A stretch of 64,000 nt of DNA from a virus. A program made the position numbers and the translations under genes. Location of the stretch: IMG/VR virus record IMGVR_UViG_3300007513_001104. One strand, 5' to 3'. Shown piece after piece: positions 3,729 to 60,448 of the stretch. Positions within the stretch are counted from its first letter, which is position 1. Each line of letters starts with the position of its first letter. The notes beneath the pieces are model-generated. The model saw nothing but the letters and a program-made list of their open reading frames with translations, was not told where the DNA came from and ran no database searches.

Positions 3729-4994
3729 TTACATTAAGTTTGTAACTTTTACTGATCTATAATACTGGTTACGATCTGCTGTAAATGTGTCAGCATCTGT
3801 AGTTCCGTTAGCCTGCATTACAAACGGGTTAGCAATCATGCCATACCTAGTTTTGAAACCAATCTTAGGTTGGAATGTGCTTGGGTCAATAGCCCTTACC
3901 ATTTGTAGTGGGACGTATGGACAGTAGAAAAGACCGGCGTCATAAGGGCTAGTGCCTTTATAACCACAAACATAGAACTGACTAGCAGCTCCTGTGTTTG
4001 CTGAATAAGGGTCAATGTAAACTCTGTAACGACCGTTTAGAACTCCGGCAAATGTATTACCTGTGTCATCAACATTTAAATTAGTTGATAATGCTGGAGC
4101 ATAGTCTAAAACGCCTGCCATTGCAAGAGCACTAGCTACGTCTGAAGAACAGATAATAAAGTTACCTTTTCCTCTACGTGTGTCTTGTGCAATTACGTTA
4201 GCATCTCGTTCAATGTTAAACAATAGACCTTTAAATCTTTCTACAGACCACCTACCGTTACTGTCAACATCTAAGTCAAATGTTCCAGCAGTAGCAGTTG
4301 AGGCTGAGCCTGTTTTTGCTACTTTGTAAATAGTTCTGATAACCTCACGGTTAATTTCTGCAAGTATTTCCTGTGAAAGGATATTACTTAGCTCGGATTC
4401 TGCATCCAACCCGTGAACAGCTTTCAAATCTTGTGCAAGTTCAACTGTGTATTCTGCTTTAAGTGCTCTTGACTTAGCAGTAACAGTTGTCTTCTCGATT
4501 GAGAATGCCATTTCTTGTAGGGTAGTTGAGTCTCCGAAGCCTTCTGCAGTGCTTGTAGATACGCCTGTGCCAGTTGTGTAAGAACCGTCTACTGGATTAG
4601 CTCCAGCGTGTGTTCCTGCACCCGAAAAGTCTGTATCTGCTTCGTTAAATAAAGCCTCTGTACCAGTTTGACTAGTATAGTGTGACTTCATTGCGAAGAT
4701 AAGACCTGTTGGGCCTGACATAGGTTGTACGCCACAAACGTCATACGCCATAAGGTTAGGCAAAGCACGTCTAACTAACGATATTAATATCGGATCATAG
4801 TTATCAACGCTTGCACCTGTTTGGTTTGCATGTGTAGCCTCGAAAAGAGCTTCCTTCTCCTCACGGAGAGCTTTCTCCTGATTTTCAAGGACTACTGTGG
4901 TAACTGCGCGCTTATATGGATCTTTGATCTCATTAAGATCAGGATGCTCAAGTACGGGCTGCCACTTTTTCTGTAGTTCTTCTGAAAGATACAT
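3729..4994 (-). CDS. gp23: major capsid protein
   Basis: KW.P.L.H, DPILISLVRR..PNL.AYDVCGVQPM.GPTGLIFAM, TAKSRALKAEYT.ELAQDLKAVHGLDAE, YCPYVPLQMVRA, FQPKIGFKTRYG. Confidence 0.98.
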   Translation of the reverse strand: MYLSEELQKKWQPVLEHPDLNEIKDPYKRAVTTVVLENQEKALREEKEALFEATHANQTGASVDNYDPILISLVRRALPNLMAYDVCGVQPMSGPTGLIFAMKSHYTSQTGTEALFNEADTDFSGAGTHAGANPVDGSYTTGTGVSTSTAEGFGDSTTLQEMAFSIEKTTVTAKSRALKAEYTVELAQDLKAVHGLDAESELSNILSQEILAEINREVIRTIYKVAKTGSASTATAGTFDLDVDSNGRWSVERFKGLLFNIERDANVIAQDTRRGKGNFIICSSDVASALAMAGVLDYAPALSTNLNVDDTGNTFAGVLNGRYRVYIDPYSANTGAASQFYVCGYKGTSPYDAGLFYCPYVPLQMVRAIDPSTFQPKIGFKTRYGMIANPFVMQANGTTDADTFTADRNQYYRSVKVTNLM

Positions 4995-53201: not shown

Positions 53202-53245
53202 ATAAATACCTATGTTATATTAATGTTACACACTTATTTATATGG
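53198..53245. promoter_or_regulatory. face-to-face late promoter pair (TATAAATA + at 53201-53208; - at 53235-53242)
   Basis: 11-bp inverted repeat CCATATAAATA/TATTTATATGG; each arm combines one promoter with the opposite gene's ATG. Confidence 0.75.
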
Positions 53246-53676
53246 TTTATGCCAAAGAAATATATAAAGGCCGATTTATTCCACGAAATCCAATAAAGTA
53301 TCTCGGGGACTTAAACTCTATTGTCTATAGATCTAGTTATGAATTAAAATTTATGAACTGGTGTGATCTTAACGAATCAGTTAAAGGTTGGGTATCAGAA
53401 GAGGTAGCAATTCCATATCGTAACCCATTAGACAATAAAGTTCACAAATATATGGTTGATTTTTATATAGAAGTAGACAAGAAAAAATATCTTGTAGAAG
53501 TAAAACCCGAAAGATTCACAAAACCTCCCGACACACAGAAAAGAAAAACCAAAAGATACATACAAGAAGTTGCCCAATACGGAGTAAACGAGGCCAAATG
53601 GAAAAGTGCTAAAGATTTTTGTAAAAAACAAAATATGGAATTTATGATTATAACTGAAAAAGAATTGGGTATCTAA
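53242..53676 (+). CDS. gp4: head completion protein (TnsA-like nuclease fold)
   Basis: Y.G.F.P.NP.KY.GD...IVYRS..E.KFM..CD, W.SEE..IPY, Y..DF, EVKP, N.AKW..A, IITE.EL. Confidence 0.92.
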   Translation: MVYAKEIYKGRFIPRNPIKYLGDLNSIVYRSSYELKFMNWCDLNESVKGWVSEEVAIPYRNPLDNKVHKYMVDFYIEVDKKKYLVEVKPERFTKPPDTQKRKTKRYIQEVAQYGVNEAKWKSAKDFCKKQNMEFMIITEKELGI

Positions 53677-53689: not shown

Positions 53690-54280
53690 ATGGCAACACC
53701 ATTCACAGATATTAGACTAGAGGCAGGAGACAGAGAACGTTCTGCTGCTTGGTATCAAAAGACTGTTCGTAATGTAGCAAGCGGAGTTAATGCTCCTAAT
53801 GAAGTATTTGGTTCAGACTTGGGAGAATATGTATCACAATTAGACGTAGGTCAAATGTATGCTTTTAGATATGATCCTTTTCACAAAGAAACATTACCAT
53901 ATTATGATAAGTTTCCTTTAGTTATAATAGCAGAACCGTTGCCAACAGGATTCAGTGGTATTAATTTACATTATCTTCCACCATTAGTAAGGGCTAGATT
54001 GTTAGGCAAACTTATGGATGCTTCAGATTTAGAGATAGATGTAAGAAGTAAATTAAATGCACAATGGAGTTTTATAAGAAATTTTAGTAGGTTCCCTGAA
54101 TGTAGAGGTTCTGTTAAGAAATATTTAACAAGTCAGGTTCAAAGTAGAATGTATAAAGTAAATCCAGTACATTGGAAGTCAGCAATATTTTTAGATACAC
54201 ATGATTTTGTTGGTGCACAAACCAGTCACATATGGAGAGAGACTGCTAAACGACCTGAACGTAAGAGGGCACAAGTATAA
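53690..54280 (+). CDS. gp2: DNA end protector protein
   Basis: S..WY, G.MY.F.YDP..K.TLPYYD.FPL, GF.G.NLHYLP...R..L, K.YL. Confidence 0.92.
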   Translation: MATPFTDIRLEAGDRERSAAWYQKTVRNVASGVNAPNEVFGSDLGEYVSQLDVGQMYAFRYDPFHKETLPYYDKFPLVIIAEPLPTGFSGINLHYLPPLVRARLLGKLMDASDLEIDVRSKLNAQWSFIRNFSRFPECRGSVKKYLTSQVQSRMYKVNPVHWKSAIFLDTHDFVGAQTSHIWRETAKRPERKRAQV

Positions 54281-55065
54281 TGTCAGATAGTAGAGTAAAA
54301 GACCAAAAAGTCCTAAATAAGTTTGAGAATTTCATAGCGAAATTTAGAGGAATGTCCTTTGCAAGGACTGAAAGGTTTGAATGTCAATTTCAATTTCCTA
54401 ATGCTTTAGAAGGCGAATGGAATAAAATTAAATCAGACCCAATGACAACCAAGAGCATGCCACAAATCGTCTCTGGAGGCACCATAAACACCGGAGGGAC
54501 TAATAGTGCGTCGGCTCCAATGGAGGCTGCTTTACTATGTGAAGAAGTTCAAATACCTGGTATGGTATTAACAAATAAAGAGGTTCCACTTGGTAATTGG
54601 AATTTTATGAGAAACAATAATGTCAACTTTTTAGGAAACGAAATTAATATTACATTCTTAACAGATAGACATTGGCAATTAAGACATTTATTTGAAGCTT
54701 GGATTGACCTTTGTGTGGATACCACATCAAAACAAGTTGCATATCCAGATGACACTCATGGTATAGTCTGGATTAATTCTTTGGATTTACAAAACAATGT
54801 AACAGCATCATGGGAGCTAATGGAAGTTACCCCCAAGGTATTAAACTTAATACCATTGGCAATGGGTGGTGTTAGTGTTGCAAGAACCACTTTAATTATA
54901 TCCTCGGCATACTGGAGGTCTAGAACCATTGATATAGATTTAAATAAAGATATTGCTGAAAAGCAAAAAGCAGAACTAGATCCTCGTTTACTTGGATATG
55001 CTGCTTACACAAACCAGATTGACGCCGACACTTACAGCCGGTGGAAAAAATATAAAGGGGATTAA
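54280..55065 (+). CDS. tail-tube initiator / gp19-like baseplate protein (gp54-like)
   Basis: AR..RF, LCE....PG, I..TF..D....R..FE.W, YPD; tube-fold pattern and synteny. Confidence 0.65.
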   Translation: MSDSRVKDQKVLNKFENFIAKFRGMSFARTERFECQFQFPNALEGEWNKIKSDPMTTKSMPQIVSGGTINTGGTNSASAPMEAALLCEEVQIPGMVLTNKEVPLGNWNFMRNNNVNFLGNEINITFLTDRHWQLRHLFEAWIDLCVDTTSKQVAYPDDTHGIVWINSLDLQNNVTASWELMEVTPKVLNLIPLAMGGVSVARTTLIISSAYWRSRTIDIDLNKDIAEKQKAELDPRLLGYAAYTNQIDADTYSRWKKYKGD

Positions 55066-55087: not shown

Positions 55088-55774
55088 ATGACACTACCTA
55101 GAGTAGAAACACCAACATTTGAAGGAAACTTAGCTTCAACGGGAGAGCCGATTAGATTCAGGCCTTTCTTAGTTAAAGAAGAAAAAATTCTTATGTTAGC
55201 AAACGAAGCTGAAGACTTTAAGGACATGGTAAACGCATGTGCTCAAATTGTAACAAACTGTTCTGGAATTAATGGACACGACCTTACAATGTTTGACCTA
55301 CAAGATCTTTTTATAAAAATAAGATCTAAATCTGTAGGTGAAGTAGCAGACTTTACTCTTTCATGTGGAAGCTGTAGTAAAACTACACCTTATGAACTAA
55401 GACTTGATGAGATGAAAGTCAAGGGTTTAGACAATCCACCCGATAACTTTATCAAGATTAACGAAGAAATAGGCGTACAATTAAAGTGGCCTACGGCTAT
55501 GGTTACATCGCAGATAGAGGAATTAGAAGATGAAGAAATAATTGCTAAATGTATTGATTATGTTGTTGATGGGGAAGAGACATTTAGTATTGAGGAAGAG
55601 CCTTTAGAAGAGGTTGCTTCTTTTATAGACGATCTTCCAATAGAAGTTATGGAGAAAATGAGAGACTTTTTTCAACAAATGCCTCGTATAGAACACACGG
55701 TGGAATATAAATGTCCACATTGTGAGACCGATAATGCTATTAGTATTAATGGATACGAACATTTTTTCGGTTAA
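55088..55774 (+). CDS. gp26: baseplate hub assembly protein
   Basis: LP...P, RPFLVKEEKIL..A, FD...LF..IRSKSVGE, CxxC pairs, FF..MP, ends G...FFG. Confidence 0.9.
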   Translation: MTLPRVETPTFEGNLASTGEPIRFRPFLVKEEKILMLANEAEDFKDMVNACAQIVTNCSGINGHDLTMFDLQDLFIKIRSKSVGEVADFTLSCGSCSKTTPYELRLDEMKVKGLDNPPDNFIKINEEIGVQLKWPTAMVTSQIEELEDEEIIAKCIDYVVDGEETFSIEEEPLEEVASFIDDLPIEVMEKMRDFFQQMPRIEHTVEYKCPHCETDNAISINGYEHFFG

Positions 55775-55965
55775 CTCTTTCTCAGGAGAGTCTTGAAAAC
55801 TTTTACAAGACTAATTTCTTGCTTATGCAAGAACATCAGTATAGTTTAACGGAGCTAGAAAACATGATGCCGTGGGAGAGAGAGGTTTACGTTTCAATGC
55901 TTATTGGGCATTTGAAGAAAAAGGCGGATAAGAAAAAACAACAACAGGAAAAAGAGAACTGGTAG
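55768..55965 (+). CDS. gp51: baseplate hub assembly protein gp51 (conserved 5' part lacks a start codon)
   Basis: Not in ORF track. RLTLSQESLENFYKTNFLLMQEHQYSLTELENMMPWEREVYVSML..HL is the gp51 pattern; first in-frame TTG/ATG are at 55819/55825. Confidence 0.85.
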   Translation, partial: RLTLSQESLENFYKTNFLLMQEHQYSLTELENMMPWEREVYVSMLIGHLKKKADKKKQQQEKENW

Positions 55966-55968
55966 AAA

Positions 55969-58900
55969 ATGGCAGACGAAAGAGTAGATAATCAAATGCT
56001 TTTGGATAAACTCGAAGGAGTAATGGATCGTCTTGAAAAGTCCGATCCCACTGATCCATCAGGCATGTTTGGCAAGTCTGTCAAAGAATTATCTACATCT
56101 AAAGATTTTAAAACCCTCCAAAAAATAGTTGATGAAAACCATGAGCGTTTAACTGAAGATACCGAAATTCTAAAAGGCGATGCCGCAACAAACAAACTAG
56201 CTAACAAAGTACAAATTGCTAAAGAAATTTATGATTCATTTAGAGAACATACAGCGAGCACATTTTATAAAGAACAAAGGAAACATAATCGAGGCGCTCG
56301 TAATTCTCGACAGAAAATGGAAAACCAGAATGATCTAATCATTCAAGACAACAAAAAAATTATTGAACTCTTAAAAGAACGTAAGAGTGGGCCTTTACTG
56401 GCAGTTGGAACCGGAGGCGGTGGCCAGCCAGATCCTTCAGCATCAGATCCTGATCAACAAAGAATTAATGAAACCGTAGACAGAATAGAGGCTAAACAGT
56501 TTAGGCTGAGCCCTAGCGAAATGCGGGATGCAGGTTATAGTAAGCGCGAGTCTGAAAGTGAAGAGTTTATTGACCTTGAAGCTCACAAAAGAAAGGATGC
56601 AGCAGAGAAAGAGAAGGCAGCTGAAGAAGTAAAGAAGAAAGAACTAAAATTCTACAAGCTCAAGGGAGATGGTGTTGATGACGCAATTAAAGACGAAACA
56701 AATTTACAAAAAACTAGAAAAAAATTATATGATGAGAAAGTTAAAGAGGCAGGTACTAATCCTTTAACAGGCGCTCAACAATATCGAGACATAGAAACAG
56801 GACAATATACAACATCTGATGAGGCTAACTGGAAGACAGCTGAACTCGCAGATGCTATTAGAGGCGGATCAGGATATGCAGGCGGTACTACAGACCGAGG
56901 GGCATCCATGGCCTCTAAAGGCGCAGCAACGTTAAGTAAAAATATTGGTGACAATGCTCCAAACATACAAAGAGGTTTAGACGAGCTTGAAAAGATAAAT
57001 GCCAAAGAAGGTTTAGAGGCTAAACAGGCTTTAGAAAAACTTACTAAAATGATGGCGCAAGCGGCATCTGGTGAAAAAGATGCGAAAGGTAAAAGAGTAT
57101 CAGCAGATGATGTTAGACAACAAGCATGGGAAACCAAACTTTTAATGCGTCGGGACAGCTTTGGTGATACCGGAGAAAAACTTACTGAGGATTTAGGCCT
57201 TGATCAAGTATCAAAAGACCTTAGTAGTGAAAGAGGTTTTAGTGCTTTGAGGGGATTTATTCCACTTAATAAAACAGGATTAAAAGACTTTGCCGGCGTT
57301 GATTCAGATGCAGGCTTTGGCAAAGGATTAAAACAAGCATTTTCACCTGAAAGGTTGTTTGGTGTTGACAAAAAGACTGGACCAAGCTTTCTTGGTAAGG
57401 TAATGAATGCACCAGGACGTCTATTTGGGGCTCGTTCGATAGAAGATAGAGTTGCAGAAGAGAAAGCAACACAAACAGTAGCAGCTAGAGATCAGGCTAA
57501 AGGTCTAGGAACCTTAATAGGAGAAGAAGGTTTAGATATAGCCACAAAAGATAAGAAAGAAGAGAAAGCAGAAGACACAAAAGATGCGGTAGAAGCCACA
57601 GCAGTAACAGTAGAAACAACAGCAGCAAAAACAGAAGGTATTGAAAAGGCAACAGAAAGAACTGCAGTAGCTACTGAAGAACTTAGAGACATGGCCAAAG
57701 ATGAAGGATCATTAATGGTTCATGATGTCCATGTTGAAGCCAAACTAGACGAATTATTAAAAGAAAAAGAGAAAAAGGACGGAAGAACAGGACAAGACAC
57801 AGAGTCAATACCTGAAAGACAATTAGAAACTCTTATTGACATGAGAGATTTGTTAGAAGAAGCTACAGCCGGTGCAGCCCTAGGAATGGACAGGAACAGT
57901 AGTGGTCCAGGATTCTTTGGAAGGATGTTCGGCAGAGGCGGAACCCCTCGAGGCGCACCACCAGGTACTAGGGTCGCAAAACCTCCTGGAAGAATGTCCA
58001 GAATGTTTAGCAAAGCAGGCTCTGCTCTTAGAGGAGCAGGTCCAGCAGCCCAAGGATTTGCCCAAGGTAGTGGTGGTGGATTGTTGAAAGGTGCGGCAAG
58101 AGGATTAACAAGATTTGGTGGCGCCATTGCTGGTGTTGGCATGGGTGTTTATGAGGGTGTAACAGGATTTAGAGATGCTGAGGCAAGAGCAGATGCAGGC
58201 GAATTAACAGCAGAAGAAGAACAAATAGAAAAAGGTGAGGCTATTGGAGGAGGCGCCGGAGGAGCAGGCGGTGCCATAGCAGGTGCAGCAGCAGGTGCAG
58301 CAATAGGCTCAGTTGTTCCGGTTATAGGTACAGCAATTGGTGGACTTATAGGTGGAGCAGTAGGTTACTTTGCAGGTAGATGGGCAGGTAAAAAAGCAGG
58401 AGGCGCTATAGCAGATGCCATTCCAGTTAGTGCTAGTGAATTAGCAGAATCTAATGAACTAGCTGAAACCACATTAGAAAATGTTGGAGAAAAAGATCCT
58501 GAATTAGTTACAACAATACGACAAGAAGCAGATCAAATAGAAGCACAGATGTTAGAAGAGGCAGGTGATGAAGTCTCAGACAATGATAAAGCTGCTATTA
58601 AAAATGCTGCTCTTGTAAAAGCAATACAAAATCATACAGCAGAAATTGATGCCCTTCCTGTAACAGGTGGAGCTCAATTAACTAGTCAAATAGAAGATGA
58701 AGATTCAGGGACAATAACAACAAGAACGACTCAAAGTATAGGTGGAACCTTTAGTGAAAGAGACCTGATGGAAAATGATCCTGAAGCATACGCTGAATTT
58801 CAAGAAGTTAAAAAACAGTTTAGAGGACAGCAAGGGGCACATTCAAAAGCAATTATAGAATGGGGTCGTATGGGAAGGACTGAAGGATTTGAAGGAGGAA

Positions 58901-59193
58901 CACTAGAAAGAACACAAAACGGAGTAGCTGTACCTGAAGGTGAAGAGATGGAGGATTTACAAGGGTCTATTGAACGGGGAACATTACCCACAGGAGATGC
59001 CATTGATAATATGACTGACCGAGCAGGCGGAGGTCCAACTACAGAGCAAGGGCCTGTTATTGTAAATAACACAGTACCTGCACCGGCACCTACACCACCA
59101 AGTGATGAGCCTAATATAGCTATTATGCCTTCTAGAGTTAGAACTTCTGATAGCGTTATACAAAGATATCAAGACAAACGTTTTAGAGTCTAA
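55969..59193 (+). CDS. tape-measure / baseplate hub protein (gp29-like)
   Basis: 1074 aa, helical and charged, with hydrophobic glycine-zipper GAAAGAAIGSVVPVIGTAIGGLIGG; C-term PVIVNN; follows gp26/gp51. Confidence 0.65.
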   Translation: MADERVDNQMLLDKLEGVMDRLEKSDPTDPSGMFGKSVKELSTSKDFKTLQKIVDENHERLTEDTEILKGDAATNKLANKVQIAKEIYDSFREHTASTFYKEQRKHNRGARNSRQKMENQNDLIIQDNKKIIELLKERKSGPLLAVGTGGGGQPDPSASDPDQQRINETVDRIEAKQFRLSPSEMRDAGYSKRESESEEFIDLEAHKRKDAAEKEKAAEEVKKKELKFYKLKGDGVDDAIKDETNLQKTRKKLYDEKVKEAGTNPLTGAQQYRDIETGQYTTSDEANWKTAELADAIRGGSGYAGGTTDRGASMASKGAATLSKNIGDNAPNIQRGLDELEKINAKEGLEAKQALEKLTKMMAQAASGEKDAKGKRVSADDVRQQAWETKLLMRRDSFGDTGEKLTEDLGLDQVSKDLSSERGFSALRGFIPLNKTGLKDFAGVDSDAGFGKGLKQAFSPERLFGVDKKTGPSFLGKVMNAPGRLFGARSIEDRVAEEKATQTVAARDQAKGLGTLIGEEGLDIATKDKKEEKAEDTKDAVEATAVTVETTAAKTEGIEKATERTAVATEELRDMAKDEGSLMVHDVHVEAKLDELLKEKEKKDGRTGQDTESIPERQLETLIDMRDLLEEATAGAALGMDRNSSGPGFFGRMFGRGGTPRGAPPGTRVAKPPGRMSRMFSKAGSALRGAGPAAQGFAQGSGGGLLKGAARGLTRFGGAIAGVGMGVYEGVTGFRDAEARADAGELTAEEEQIEKGEAIGGGAGGAGGAIAGAAAGAAIGSVVPVIGTAIGGLIGGAVGYFAGRWAGKKAGGAIADAIPVSASELAESNELAETTLENVGEKDPELVTTIRQEADQIEAQMLEEAGDEVSDNDKAAIKNAALVKAIQNHTAEIDALPVTGGAQLTSQIEDEDSGTITTRTTQSIGGTFSERDLMENDPEAYAEFQEVKKQFRGQQGAHSKAIIEWGRMGRTEGFEGGTLERTQNGVAVPEGEEMEDLQGSIERGTLPTGDAIDNMTDRAGGGPTTEQGPVIVNNTVPAPAPTPPSDEPNIAIMPSRVRTSDSVIQRYQDKRFRV

Positions 59194-59333
59194 TGAAACA
59201 TCAAGACGAAGAGGTATGGGAATACACCCATCGATTAAGACGTCATATTAAAAAACCAATTGAATTAAACGCGTTTGCTATAGTTTTGACACTCTGTCTG
59301 ACAGGCGTGTTGCTCTATTACCTACTTGCCTAG
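59193..59333 (+). CDS. small tail-anchored membrane protein (46 aa)
   Basis: Not in ORF track. TAATG coupling to the tape-measure stop; MKHQDEEVWEYTHRLRRHIKKPIELNAFAIVLTLCLTGVLLYYLLA. Confidence 0.5.
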   Translation: MKHQDEEVWEYTHRLRRHIKKPIELNAFAIVLTLCLTGVLLYYLLA

Positions 59334-59730
59334 CCCACTTACTATCTAACATTTCCTCAGAAGCAAGTTTCCAATGATGGTTCTCTAAATGATTGATAAA
59401 CTTTTTAAATTTACTTAACCTAGGTCTTCCTAAGTTGAACATCATATTAACAAGAACTTCTTTTAATTCATCTGGAAAATTATTCCAACGAGCCTCAAAT
59501 AATACTTCACATTCCGCTATAGATGTATCTAAGTCTTGTTGAAAGACTTCATATATTCTATCTTCGGAAACATCATAGCCTTCCGGAAGACCGTCTTCTT
59601 CATCATCTTTTGTAATCAAGTGTCCTATTCCAAACGTTAAAAATCCTAAGTGATCTTTGTATATACCATATACAATACCCTCATCAATTTTTAATTGTTC
59701 ATAGACATTGTCTCTATTTTCTTTTTTCAT
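59278..59730 (-). CDS. e: T4-type lysozyme (GH24 endolysin)
   Basis: L.IDEG....YKD.LG..T.GIGHL (E/D/T triad), NM.FNLG..L..F, EM.DS.WA.QV..RA. Confidence 0.92.
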   Translation of the reverse strand: MKKENRDNVYEQLKIDEGIVYGIYKDHLGFLTFGIGHLITKDDEEDGLPEGYDVSEDRIYEVFQQDLDTSIAECEVLFEARWNNFPDELKEVLVNMMFNLGRPRLSKFKKFINHLENHHWKLASEEMLDSKWARQVGNRATRLSDRVSKL

Positions 59731-60448
59731 TATTGTATCCTAACATTATGTCGGGTTTGAGAAAACATACTGTAATACTGATCCTTAGTTTCTCATATTT
59801 AATATTATCCGGATCGGGATAGCTTTTATTTAAACCTTGTGAGTCATCTTTCTTATATATGTAAGAGTCTGTCCCAGGTACTTCGTGTTCTAACCAGGCT
59901 GGCCACATTAATAAATCGCCTGTTTCTGGGTAGATTGTTTCTTCCAAATTAAGTTTAGATATTCCTGGTACTGAACTTGTTACCAGACTGTTTATAGGAG
60001 ATCTAAAAGTTATTGGTGCATGCTCTTCTTCTTGTTGAACATAATAAGTTCCAACTAAACAATATTGTGAATGGTGGTGCCAAGGATAATCATCTGTTTC
60101 ATCAAAGACGCTCCACCATGCTTGTACTGGCCAATATTCCTCTAACTGTTCAATCCACATATAATCAGACATTTCTTTAAAATATTTTAGTGCATGTTGA
60201 TGTATTATTGCTCTTAACGTTTTCCAACCATCTACACCTTCCATTGAATCTTTACCTTTATCATAAGCATGATTTCCTTCACTATCATATAGGCCTAATT
60301 TTCTCCAATGTTTTCCTTTTAAAGGATTCTTTTCTAAGTAATATGCTCTTTCGTCATATAACTTTGTAATAGATGTGGCAAGTCTTTTATTAAGATCAGG
60401 ATAATTTGACTTTTGTAGATACAGTTTTGTAGGAAATAAATCAATCAT
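59714..60448 (-). CDS. 2OG-Fe(II) oxygenase-like protein
   Basis: W......H.H....GTYYV, P..GDL..WP.WL.H.V, RISI. Confidence 0.75.
   Translation of the reverse strand: MIDLFPTKLYLQKSNYPDLNKRLATSITKLYDERAYYLEKNPLKGKHWRKLGLYDSEGNHAYDKGKDSMEGVDGWKTLRAIIHQHALKYFKEMSDYMWIEQLEEYWPVQAWWSVFDETDDYPWHHHSQYCLVGTYYVQQEEEHAPITFRSPINSLVTSSVPGISKLNLEETIYPETGDLLMWPAWLEHEVPGTDSYIYKKDDSQGLNKSYPDPDNIKYEKLRISITVCFLKPDIMLGYNNEKRK

Follow-up and report, generated by a model that had tools for sequence, protein, structure and literature searches.

The window, a stretch of 64,000 nucleotides of virus DNA, is part of the genome of a marine T4-like myovirus and has a G+C content of 36.7%. Among cultured phages the nearest are cyanophages, Methylophilales phages and Pelagibacter phages, with DNA identities of 65-75% in short stretches only. 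The minus strand of the window carries gp6-, gp5-, gp27-, gp53- and gp48-like baseplate gene homologues. On the plus strand a gp4-like head closure gene (53242-53676) and a gp2-like DNA end protector gene (53690-54280) precede a gene for a tail-tube-like protein (54280-55065; phrog_45, tail tube, E 7.7e-22), directly 5' of the chaperone locus at 55088-55965.

A tape-measure-like gene on the plus strand (55969-59193; 1074 residues, the gp29 equivalent) begins 3 nt past the TAG that ends the chaperone locus at 55965. This ORF has weak PHROG matches, including one to the tail length tape measure protein family phrog_794 (E 5e-13), and a tape-measure-like gene occupies the same position in cyanophages, phiM12 and KVP40. 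The chaperone locus thus holds the position of a G/GT-type gene, between a tail-tube-like and a tape-measure-like gene, the latter called from weak profile matches and synteny. Next to the tape-measure-like gene, on the minus strand, are a lysozyme-like ORF (59278-59730), which adjoins it and weakly matches families of tail lysozymes and endolysins, and a gene for a 2OG-Fe(II) oxygenase (59714-60448), a typical auxiliary gene of marine phages.

The first ORF of the chaperone locus (55088-55774, plus strand, 0 frame) encodes a gp26-like protein of 228 residues, the short chaperone form or TAC-N. It matches the T4_baseplate family PF12322 (E 3.3e-56, residues 11-227 on profile positions 6-218 of 219) and phrog_150 (E 3.2e-56, profile positions 5-232 of 282), and with these whole-domain matches it belongs to the T4 gp26/gp51 family. 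Its identity to the gp26 of any cultured phage is at most 37%. With uncultured relatives, identities of 79-88% are reached.

An AF2 model of the short form (pLDDT 91) was compared by VIA-align with 48,161 chains. The top three matches, all on residues 1-90, were 2ob9_B (Z 7.2), 3fgx_B (Z 6.8) and 3klu_A (Z 6.3). The same chains were at the top with a separate model of residues 1-95 (pLDDT 84): 2ob9_B had a Z-score of 7.3 (rmsd 3.2, 81 residues aligned), 3fgx_B of 6.1 and 3klu_A of 6.0, after which the scores drop to 5.0. These entries, 2ob9 (the HK97 tail assembly chaperone), 3fgx and 3klu (YqbN), are given in PMC9603447 as the three solved phage tail assembly chaperones. Foldseek returned no significant match with either model (top match: 3fgx_A, E 0.45, TM 0.53), and a PDB sequence search with the gp26-like protein found nothing. 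The top three matches belong to a single functional family and span the domain in full, but their Z-scores are middling, and it is therefore with moderate confidence that the modelled N-terminal domain is assigned the tail assembly chaperone fold of the HK97 gp13 type. Four cysteines in two CxxC pairs, Cys93 and Cys96 (55364-55375) and Cys209 and Cys212 (55712-55723), are invariant or nearly so. The part of the model that bears them gave weak fold matches to zinc-ribbon proteins (VIA-align ranks 9, 15 and 24), and from the model the T4-like short chaperone seems to carry a zinc-ribbon-containing domain that is absent from lambda gpG.

The junction of the gp26-like ORF and its -1 extension

The gp26-like ORF ends with the codons GAA CAT TTT TTC GGT TAA. 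These include the slippery heptamer T TTT TTC (55762-55768), an X XXY YYZ sequence in phase with the ORF and coding for Phe-Phe, and one codon past it the 0-frame stop TAA (55772-55774) that terminates the short form. In the -1 frame TAA 55747-55749 closes the reading frame on the upstream side, after which it is open from 55750 until TAG 55963-55965. A change from the 0 frame to the -1 frame must therefore fall within 55750-55771. The translation of the -1 frame from 55750 begins WIRTFFRLTL, runs through SQE and the SLENFYKTNF block to LLMQEH, and ends with ENW. Its earliest ATG, GTG or TTG is TTG 55819, 3' of that block. The sequence GGAG (55785-55788) precedes TTG 55793-55795, but this codon is in the gp26 frame and not in the -1 frame. 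The heptamer with its phase, the limits of the open frame, the lack of a start codon before the block and the out-of-frame TTG all agree with what the earlier note had described.

A slip on the heptamer would give a long form (TAC-NC) of 292 residues, made up of residues 1-227 of the short form and 65 residues from the -1 frame (55768-55965, plus strand; 65 codons and TAG), to which the 'gp51' part of the databases corresponds. The predicted junction is ...GYEHFFR/LTLSQESLENFYK, and the tryptic peptides expected across it are CPHCETDNAISINGYEHFFR and then LTLSQESLENFYK. As in G/GT-type genes, a short ORF with the slip site at its 3' end is followed by a -1 extension.

Several comparisons indicate that the extension and the gp26-like domain belong together. 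The 65 residues of the extension match phrog_634 ('hub assembly catalyst') with E 2.6e-26 and also cover positions 235-277 of phrog_150, where they continue the profile matched by the upstream ORF; in the long form the gp51 C-terminal segment is collinear with the gp26-like domain. In phage T6, gp51 (249 residues) spans phrog_150 positions 14-280 in a single frame and gp26 (208 residues) spans positions 14-235. A BLASTP alignment of the 292-residue fusion with T6 gp51 continues through the junction without gaps (query segment ...GYEHFFRLTLSQESLENFYKTNF...), and the C-terminus of T6 gp26, ...EFFEL, lies two residues beyond the Phe-Phe. The T6 genes for gp26 and gp51 are divergently transcribed and both carry PF12322. 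Given this gapless alignment of T6 gp51 and the end of T6 gp26 at the junction, the T-even phages have two paralogous genes, one for the short and one for the long form. Judging from the reading frames, a shift is required for the long form of the present phage, unlike that of the T-even phages.

Conservation of the slip site among relatives

The junction was compared in 80 related IMG/VR loci and in P-SSM2, S-CAM1 and P-TIM40, together 83 loci with 64 distinct junctions. All 83 loci have the extension in the -1 frame, and the in-phase T TTT TTY is present in all 64 distinct junctions, as TTTTTTC in 50 and as TTTTTTT in 14. The first Phe codon is always TTT. The codon before the two Phe codons varies (CAT 28, AAT 18, AGT 14, GAT 3, GCT 1) but keeps its final T throughout. 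The 0-frame stop follows the heptamer directly in 12 of the 64 junctions and after one codon in the other 52. Four lineages have a -1-frame stop right next to the heptamer and twelve have the 0-frame stop immediately behind it, one relative (L073) having both, so that in these lineages only the 7 nt of the heptamer can host the shift. The junction alignment is gapless over 117 nt, and a conserved block with the consensus LS[QH][ED]xLxN[FY]YKTNF starts exactly 12 residues past the shift site without indels.

The same heptamer in the same phase is found in KVP40 (Straboviridae), Methylophilales phage Melnitz-2, Pseudomonas phage pf16 and Sinorhizobium phage phiM12. Slip site and phase are thus kept among diverged relatives, as is characteristic of G/GT-type genes, and the evidence for a frameshift is spread over Kyanoviridae-like phages, KVP40, phiM12 and pf16. 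An alignment of T4-like junctions of this kind was among the checks proposed in the earlier note, which expected a constant heptamer and phase; both proved invariant.

The gp26-like gene (orf090) of Escherichia phage Cba120 (L085 in our set) ends GAG ATT TTC ATT TAA and lacks a canonical X XXY YYZ heptamer. It is followed by an unannotated -1-frame ORF (4283-4468) that bears the gp51 motif (YSIFEISESMPWHLD). Another slip site, or a separate start (GTG ATG) for the gp51 part, may be in use in the Ackermannviridae.

Possible origins of the long form

In view of these observations, the gp26-like gene probably yields a short chaperone of 228 residues and a long one of 292 residues through tandem -1 slippage of two tRNA-Phe on T TTT TTY, a mechanism in line with all of the constraints. 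The majority of ribosomes would halt at TAA 55772 and release the short form. A minority, with two tRNA-Phe on TTT TTC (55763-55768), would slip back by one base and re-pair on T TTT TT, after which they would go on in the -1 frame from CGG 55768 and end at TAG 55965. The last 65 residues of the long form so produced would be the database 'gp51'. By analogy with lambda G/GT and with T4 gp26/gp51, both forms could act on the tape-measure-like protein in the initiation of hub and tail tube, with neither being kept in the virion. The ribosomal nature of the slip, its frequency and the binding target of the extension are given here as we infer them.

Signals that might stimulate slippage were sought around the heptamer. 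RNAalifold gave no consensus RNA structure for the 64 gapless junction sequences, and a conserved stimulatory structure at the usual spacing of 5-9 nt was not found. A possible hairpin of 7 bp (AGTCTTG/CAAGACT, 55789-55812, plus strand) lies within the SLENFYKT codons. In the alignment of relatives its arms (columns 34-40 with 51-57) are paired in 77% of cells, against 27-44% when the partner is slid, and they also beat shuffled sequences; some pairs change on both sides (A-U to C-G, four rows). As a stimulator the hairpin was rejected: it was derived from the sequence of the window itself, its distance from the heptamer is 20 nt, and in many lineages the pairing is disrupted. A Shine-Dalgarno-like GAGG, GGAG or AGGA about 9 nt 5' of the heptamer is present in 30 of the 64 junctions (relatives in the range L001-L003 and L042-L083), where it consists of an invariant Gly codon and its neighbours. 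This element recalls the upstream stimulator of dnaX, but a Shine-Dalgarno-like GAGG 5-20 nt upstream was discarded as a general stimulator, being restricted to those 30 junctions and absent from the window and its clade. In the lineages that have it, a 0-frame stop abutting the heptamer may help slippage.

Slippage could also occur during transcription. RNA polymerase would then add an extra U in the T6 run, and the same 292-residue fusion would be translated from a fraction of the mRNAs. We regard this as a rather unlikely source of the long form, although several features are compatible with it. Every lineage has a homopolymer at the site (T6 in 50, T7 in 13 and T8 in one of the 64 junctions), and a canonical downstream stimulator was not found. 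Bacterial sites of programmed transcriptional slippage, however, are runs of about 9 or longer, and six T are short by that measure. Moreover, position 7 is kept as C in 50 of 64 junctions though a synonymous TTT would extend the run, and the start of the run is fixed at codon position 3 in all 64, as needed for tandem tRNA re-pairing but irrelevant to a polymerase; this fixed phase is in part a consequence of the conservation of Phe-Phe.

The avoidance of such sequences elsewhere was examined in the 58 long ORFs of the window, which contain 28 x-Phe-Phe tripeptides. An in-phase T TTT TTY occurs once, at the gp26 site, whereas synonymous-codon shuffling predicts 6.4 +/- 2.0 occurrences (P about 0.002). 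Runs of at least six T are also scarce, with 7, 0 and 4 in the three codon phases against 12.2, 5.4 and 11.6 expected from the synonymous shuffle (total 11 against about 29). The depletion in all three phases, a point that can be counted in favor of polymerase slippage, means that avoidance does not separate ribosomal from transcriptional slippage. By itself it looks like a general avoidance of T homopolymers in the coding sequence of this phage. The earlier proposal of a programmed -1 frameshift fusing gp26 to gp51 is supported as the most likely reading, and it is between ribosome and polymerase as the slipping partner that the sequence does not separate.

A further option dispenses with recoding and treats 'gp51' as a separate small protein that starts at TTG 55819 or ATG 55825. 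The ATG, at columns 70-72 of the junction alignment, is nearly invariant, and P-SSM2, P-TIM40, phiM12, KVP40 and others have a gp51 CDS of their own in their annotation. Yet the stretch upstream of this ATG has the properties of coding sequence. In 59 distinct rows covering the region from the heptamer to the ATG, the column entropies at the three -1-frame codon positions are 0.67, 0.50 and 1.29. Of the codons that differ, a fraction of 0.47 is synonymous in the -1 frame, as opposed to 0.115 and 0.066 in the other two, and the start-less stretch has no stops in the -1 frame against 263 and 188 in the others. By these measures, the stretch ahead of the first conserved ATG evolves as -1-frame coding sequence, i.e. 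it is translated. The constrained part comprises 17 codons 5' of the ATG and includes the LS[QH][ED]xLxN[FY]YKTNF block, before which 51 of the 64 junctions have no -1-frame ATG, GTG or TTG; this disfavors independent initiation of gp51, which the earlier note had listed as an observation that would speak against a fusion. No Shine-Dalgarno sequence is within range of 55819 or 55825, the same segment is internal in T6 gp51 with Val at the position of the Met, and one relative (L060) has ATC in place of the ATG. A separate gp51 as the sole product of the -1 frame is therefore very improbable, but the ATG at 55825 could serve as the start of a small independent peptide.

The earlier note had listed a homopolymer assembly error as a possible objection. 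T-runs are error-prone on some sequencing platforms, and a sequencing or assembly error here would mean that the true gene is one in-frame ORF. This reading can be practically dismissed because the run and the need for a -1 shift recur in 83 independent assemblies and cultured-phage genomes, T7 and T8 variants included, and also in view of the lengths of the best 120 database homologues (all 155-249 residues, none about 290) and of an identical 228-residue protein recorded on two contigs from two sources.

Relation to other tail chaperones and to database annotation

The locus shares with lambda gpG/gpGT its place just 5' of the tape-measure gene, a short product and a -1 extended product, and a first ORF with the slip site at its 3' end. 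The modelled chaperone fold of the N-terminal domain is, with moderate confidence, a further likeness to lambda-type tail chaperones. There is no sequence similarity to gpG/gpGT, however, and the slip site is T TTT TTY instead of the G GGA AAG of lambda. The short form is also larger than gpG, its 228 residues including an extra domain with the four conserved cysteines. A tail chaperone -1 frameshift on a T-run heptamer, in the E/E+E' genes upstream of the tape-measure gene of the myovirus P2, is said to have been described by Christie et al. in 2002. The sequence of P2 E/E+E' is unrelated to the present chaperone, and P2 has its own type of baseplate.

In T4, gp26 and gp51 are hub assembly chaperones (Leiman et al. 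2010, PMC3004832, Table 2), and gp51 is needed for assembly but absent from the particle (PMC3004832). The T4/T6 gp26 (208 residues) resembles the short form and T6 gp51 (249 residues) the long form, collinear across the junction. In T6 these are separate, divergently transcribed paralogous genes without a slip site, whereas here one gene with a -1 shift would provide both forms. The earlier note had also proposed that gp26 and gp26-51 are the equivalent of G/GT in the T4 superfamily. The position of the locus, the in-frame counterpart in T6 gp51 and the N-terminal fold speak for this equivalence. Its reach is narrower than proposed, since the T-even gp26 and gp51 genes are truly separate and divergently transcribed paralogues, and it is to the T4-like phages outside the T-even group that the frameshift applies. 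The majority of T4-like lineages seem to rely on the ancestral frameshift, which the T-even phages seem to have replaced by two paralogous genes. Citing Xu et al. 2004, Atkins et al. 2016 (PMC5009743) describe G-T frameshifting as a conserved trait of the long-tailed phages and name T4 as the exception. The distribution found here would close this reported gap in a near-universal tail-chaperone frameshift (PMC5009743).

According to papers that cite their work, Vladimirov, Gautam and Davidson identified the genes that encode tail assembly chaperones in T4-like phages (Virology 2022;566:9-15, PMID 34826709). The PRFect paper (PMC10274946), in the passage that refers to this study, states that in some T4-like phages a pair of genes, one short and one longer and fused, takes the place of frameshifting, and the study is also the reference given in PMC12846349 for poly-T '-1 frameshift signals' in 'TAC-N genes of T4-like phages'. 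As far as these citations convey its content, the 2022 study concerns the same family and the same idea, the present case being that of an uncultured marine phage. Our literature search found no direct report of a gp26/gp51 frameshift, the study of Vladimirov et al. being represented in it through the citing papers only. To go by those papers, the idea of frameshifting in T4-like chaperones is already published (2022), and the value of the present analysis therefore lies in corroboration and annotation and not in discovery. If the published work covers only the identity of the chaperones and the two-gene solution of the T-even phages, the family-wide evidence presented here would be the first systematic case for a frameshift in non-T-even T4-like phages, which we consider improbable. 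The same improbable reading includes a variant in which polymerase slippage on only six T would constitute an unusually short programmed slippage site.

The site is a strongly conserved recoding signal that is useful for annotation and offers a clean test case. The extension matches 539 phage records, in which it is listed as a protein of its own ('baseplate hub assembly catalyst' or 'hypothetical protein') or lacks annotation. The seven records of the frameshift type that were opened contain either two CDSs or gp26 alone, and none has a joined CDS; probably all such records should carry one. The label itself is heterogeneous: positions 2-57 of the phrog_634 profile align to residues 146-200 of T6 gp51, which form the end of the gp26-like domain, so that the PHROG 'hub assembly catalyst' family is a mixture of genuine extensions and fragments of the chaperone domain.
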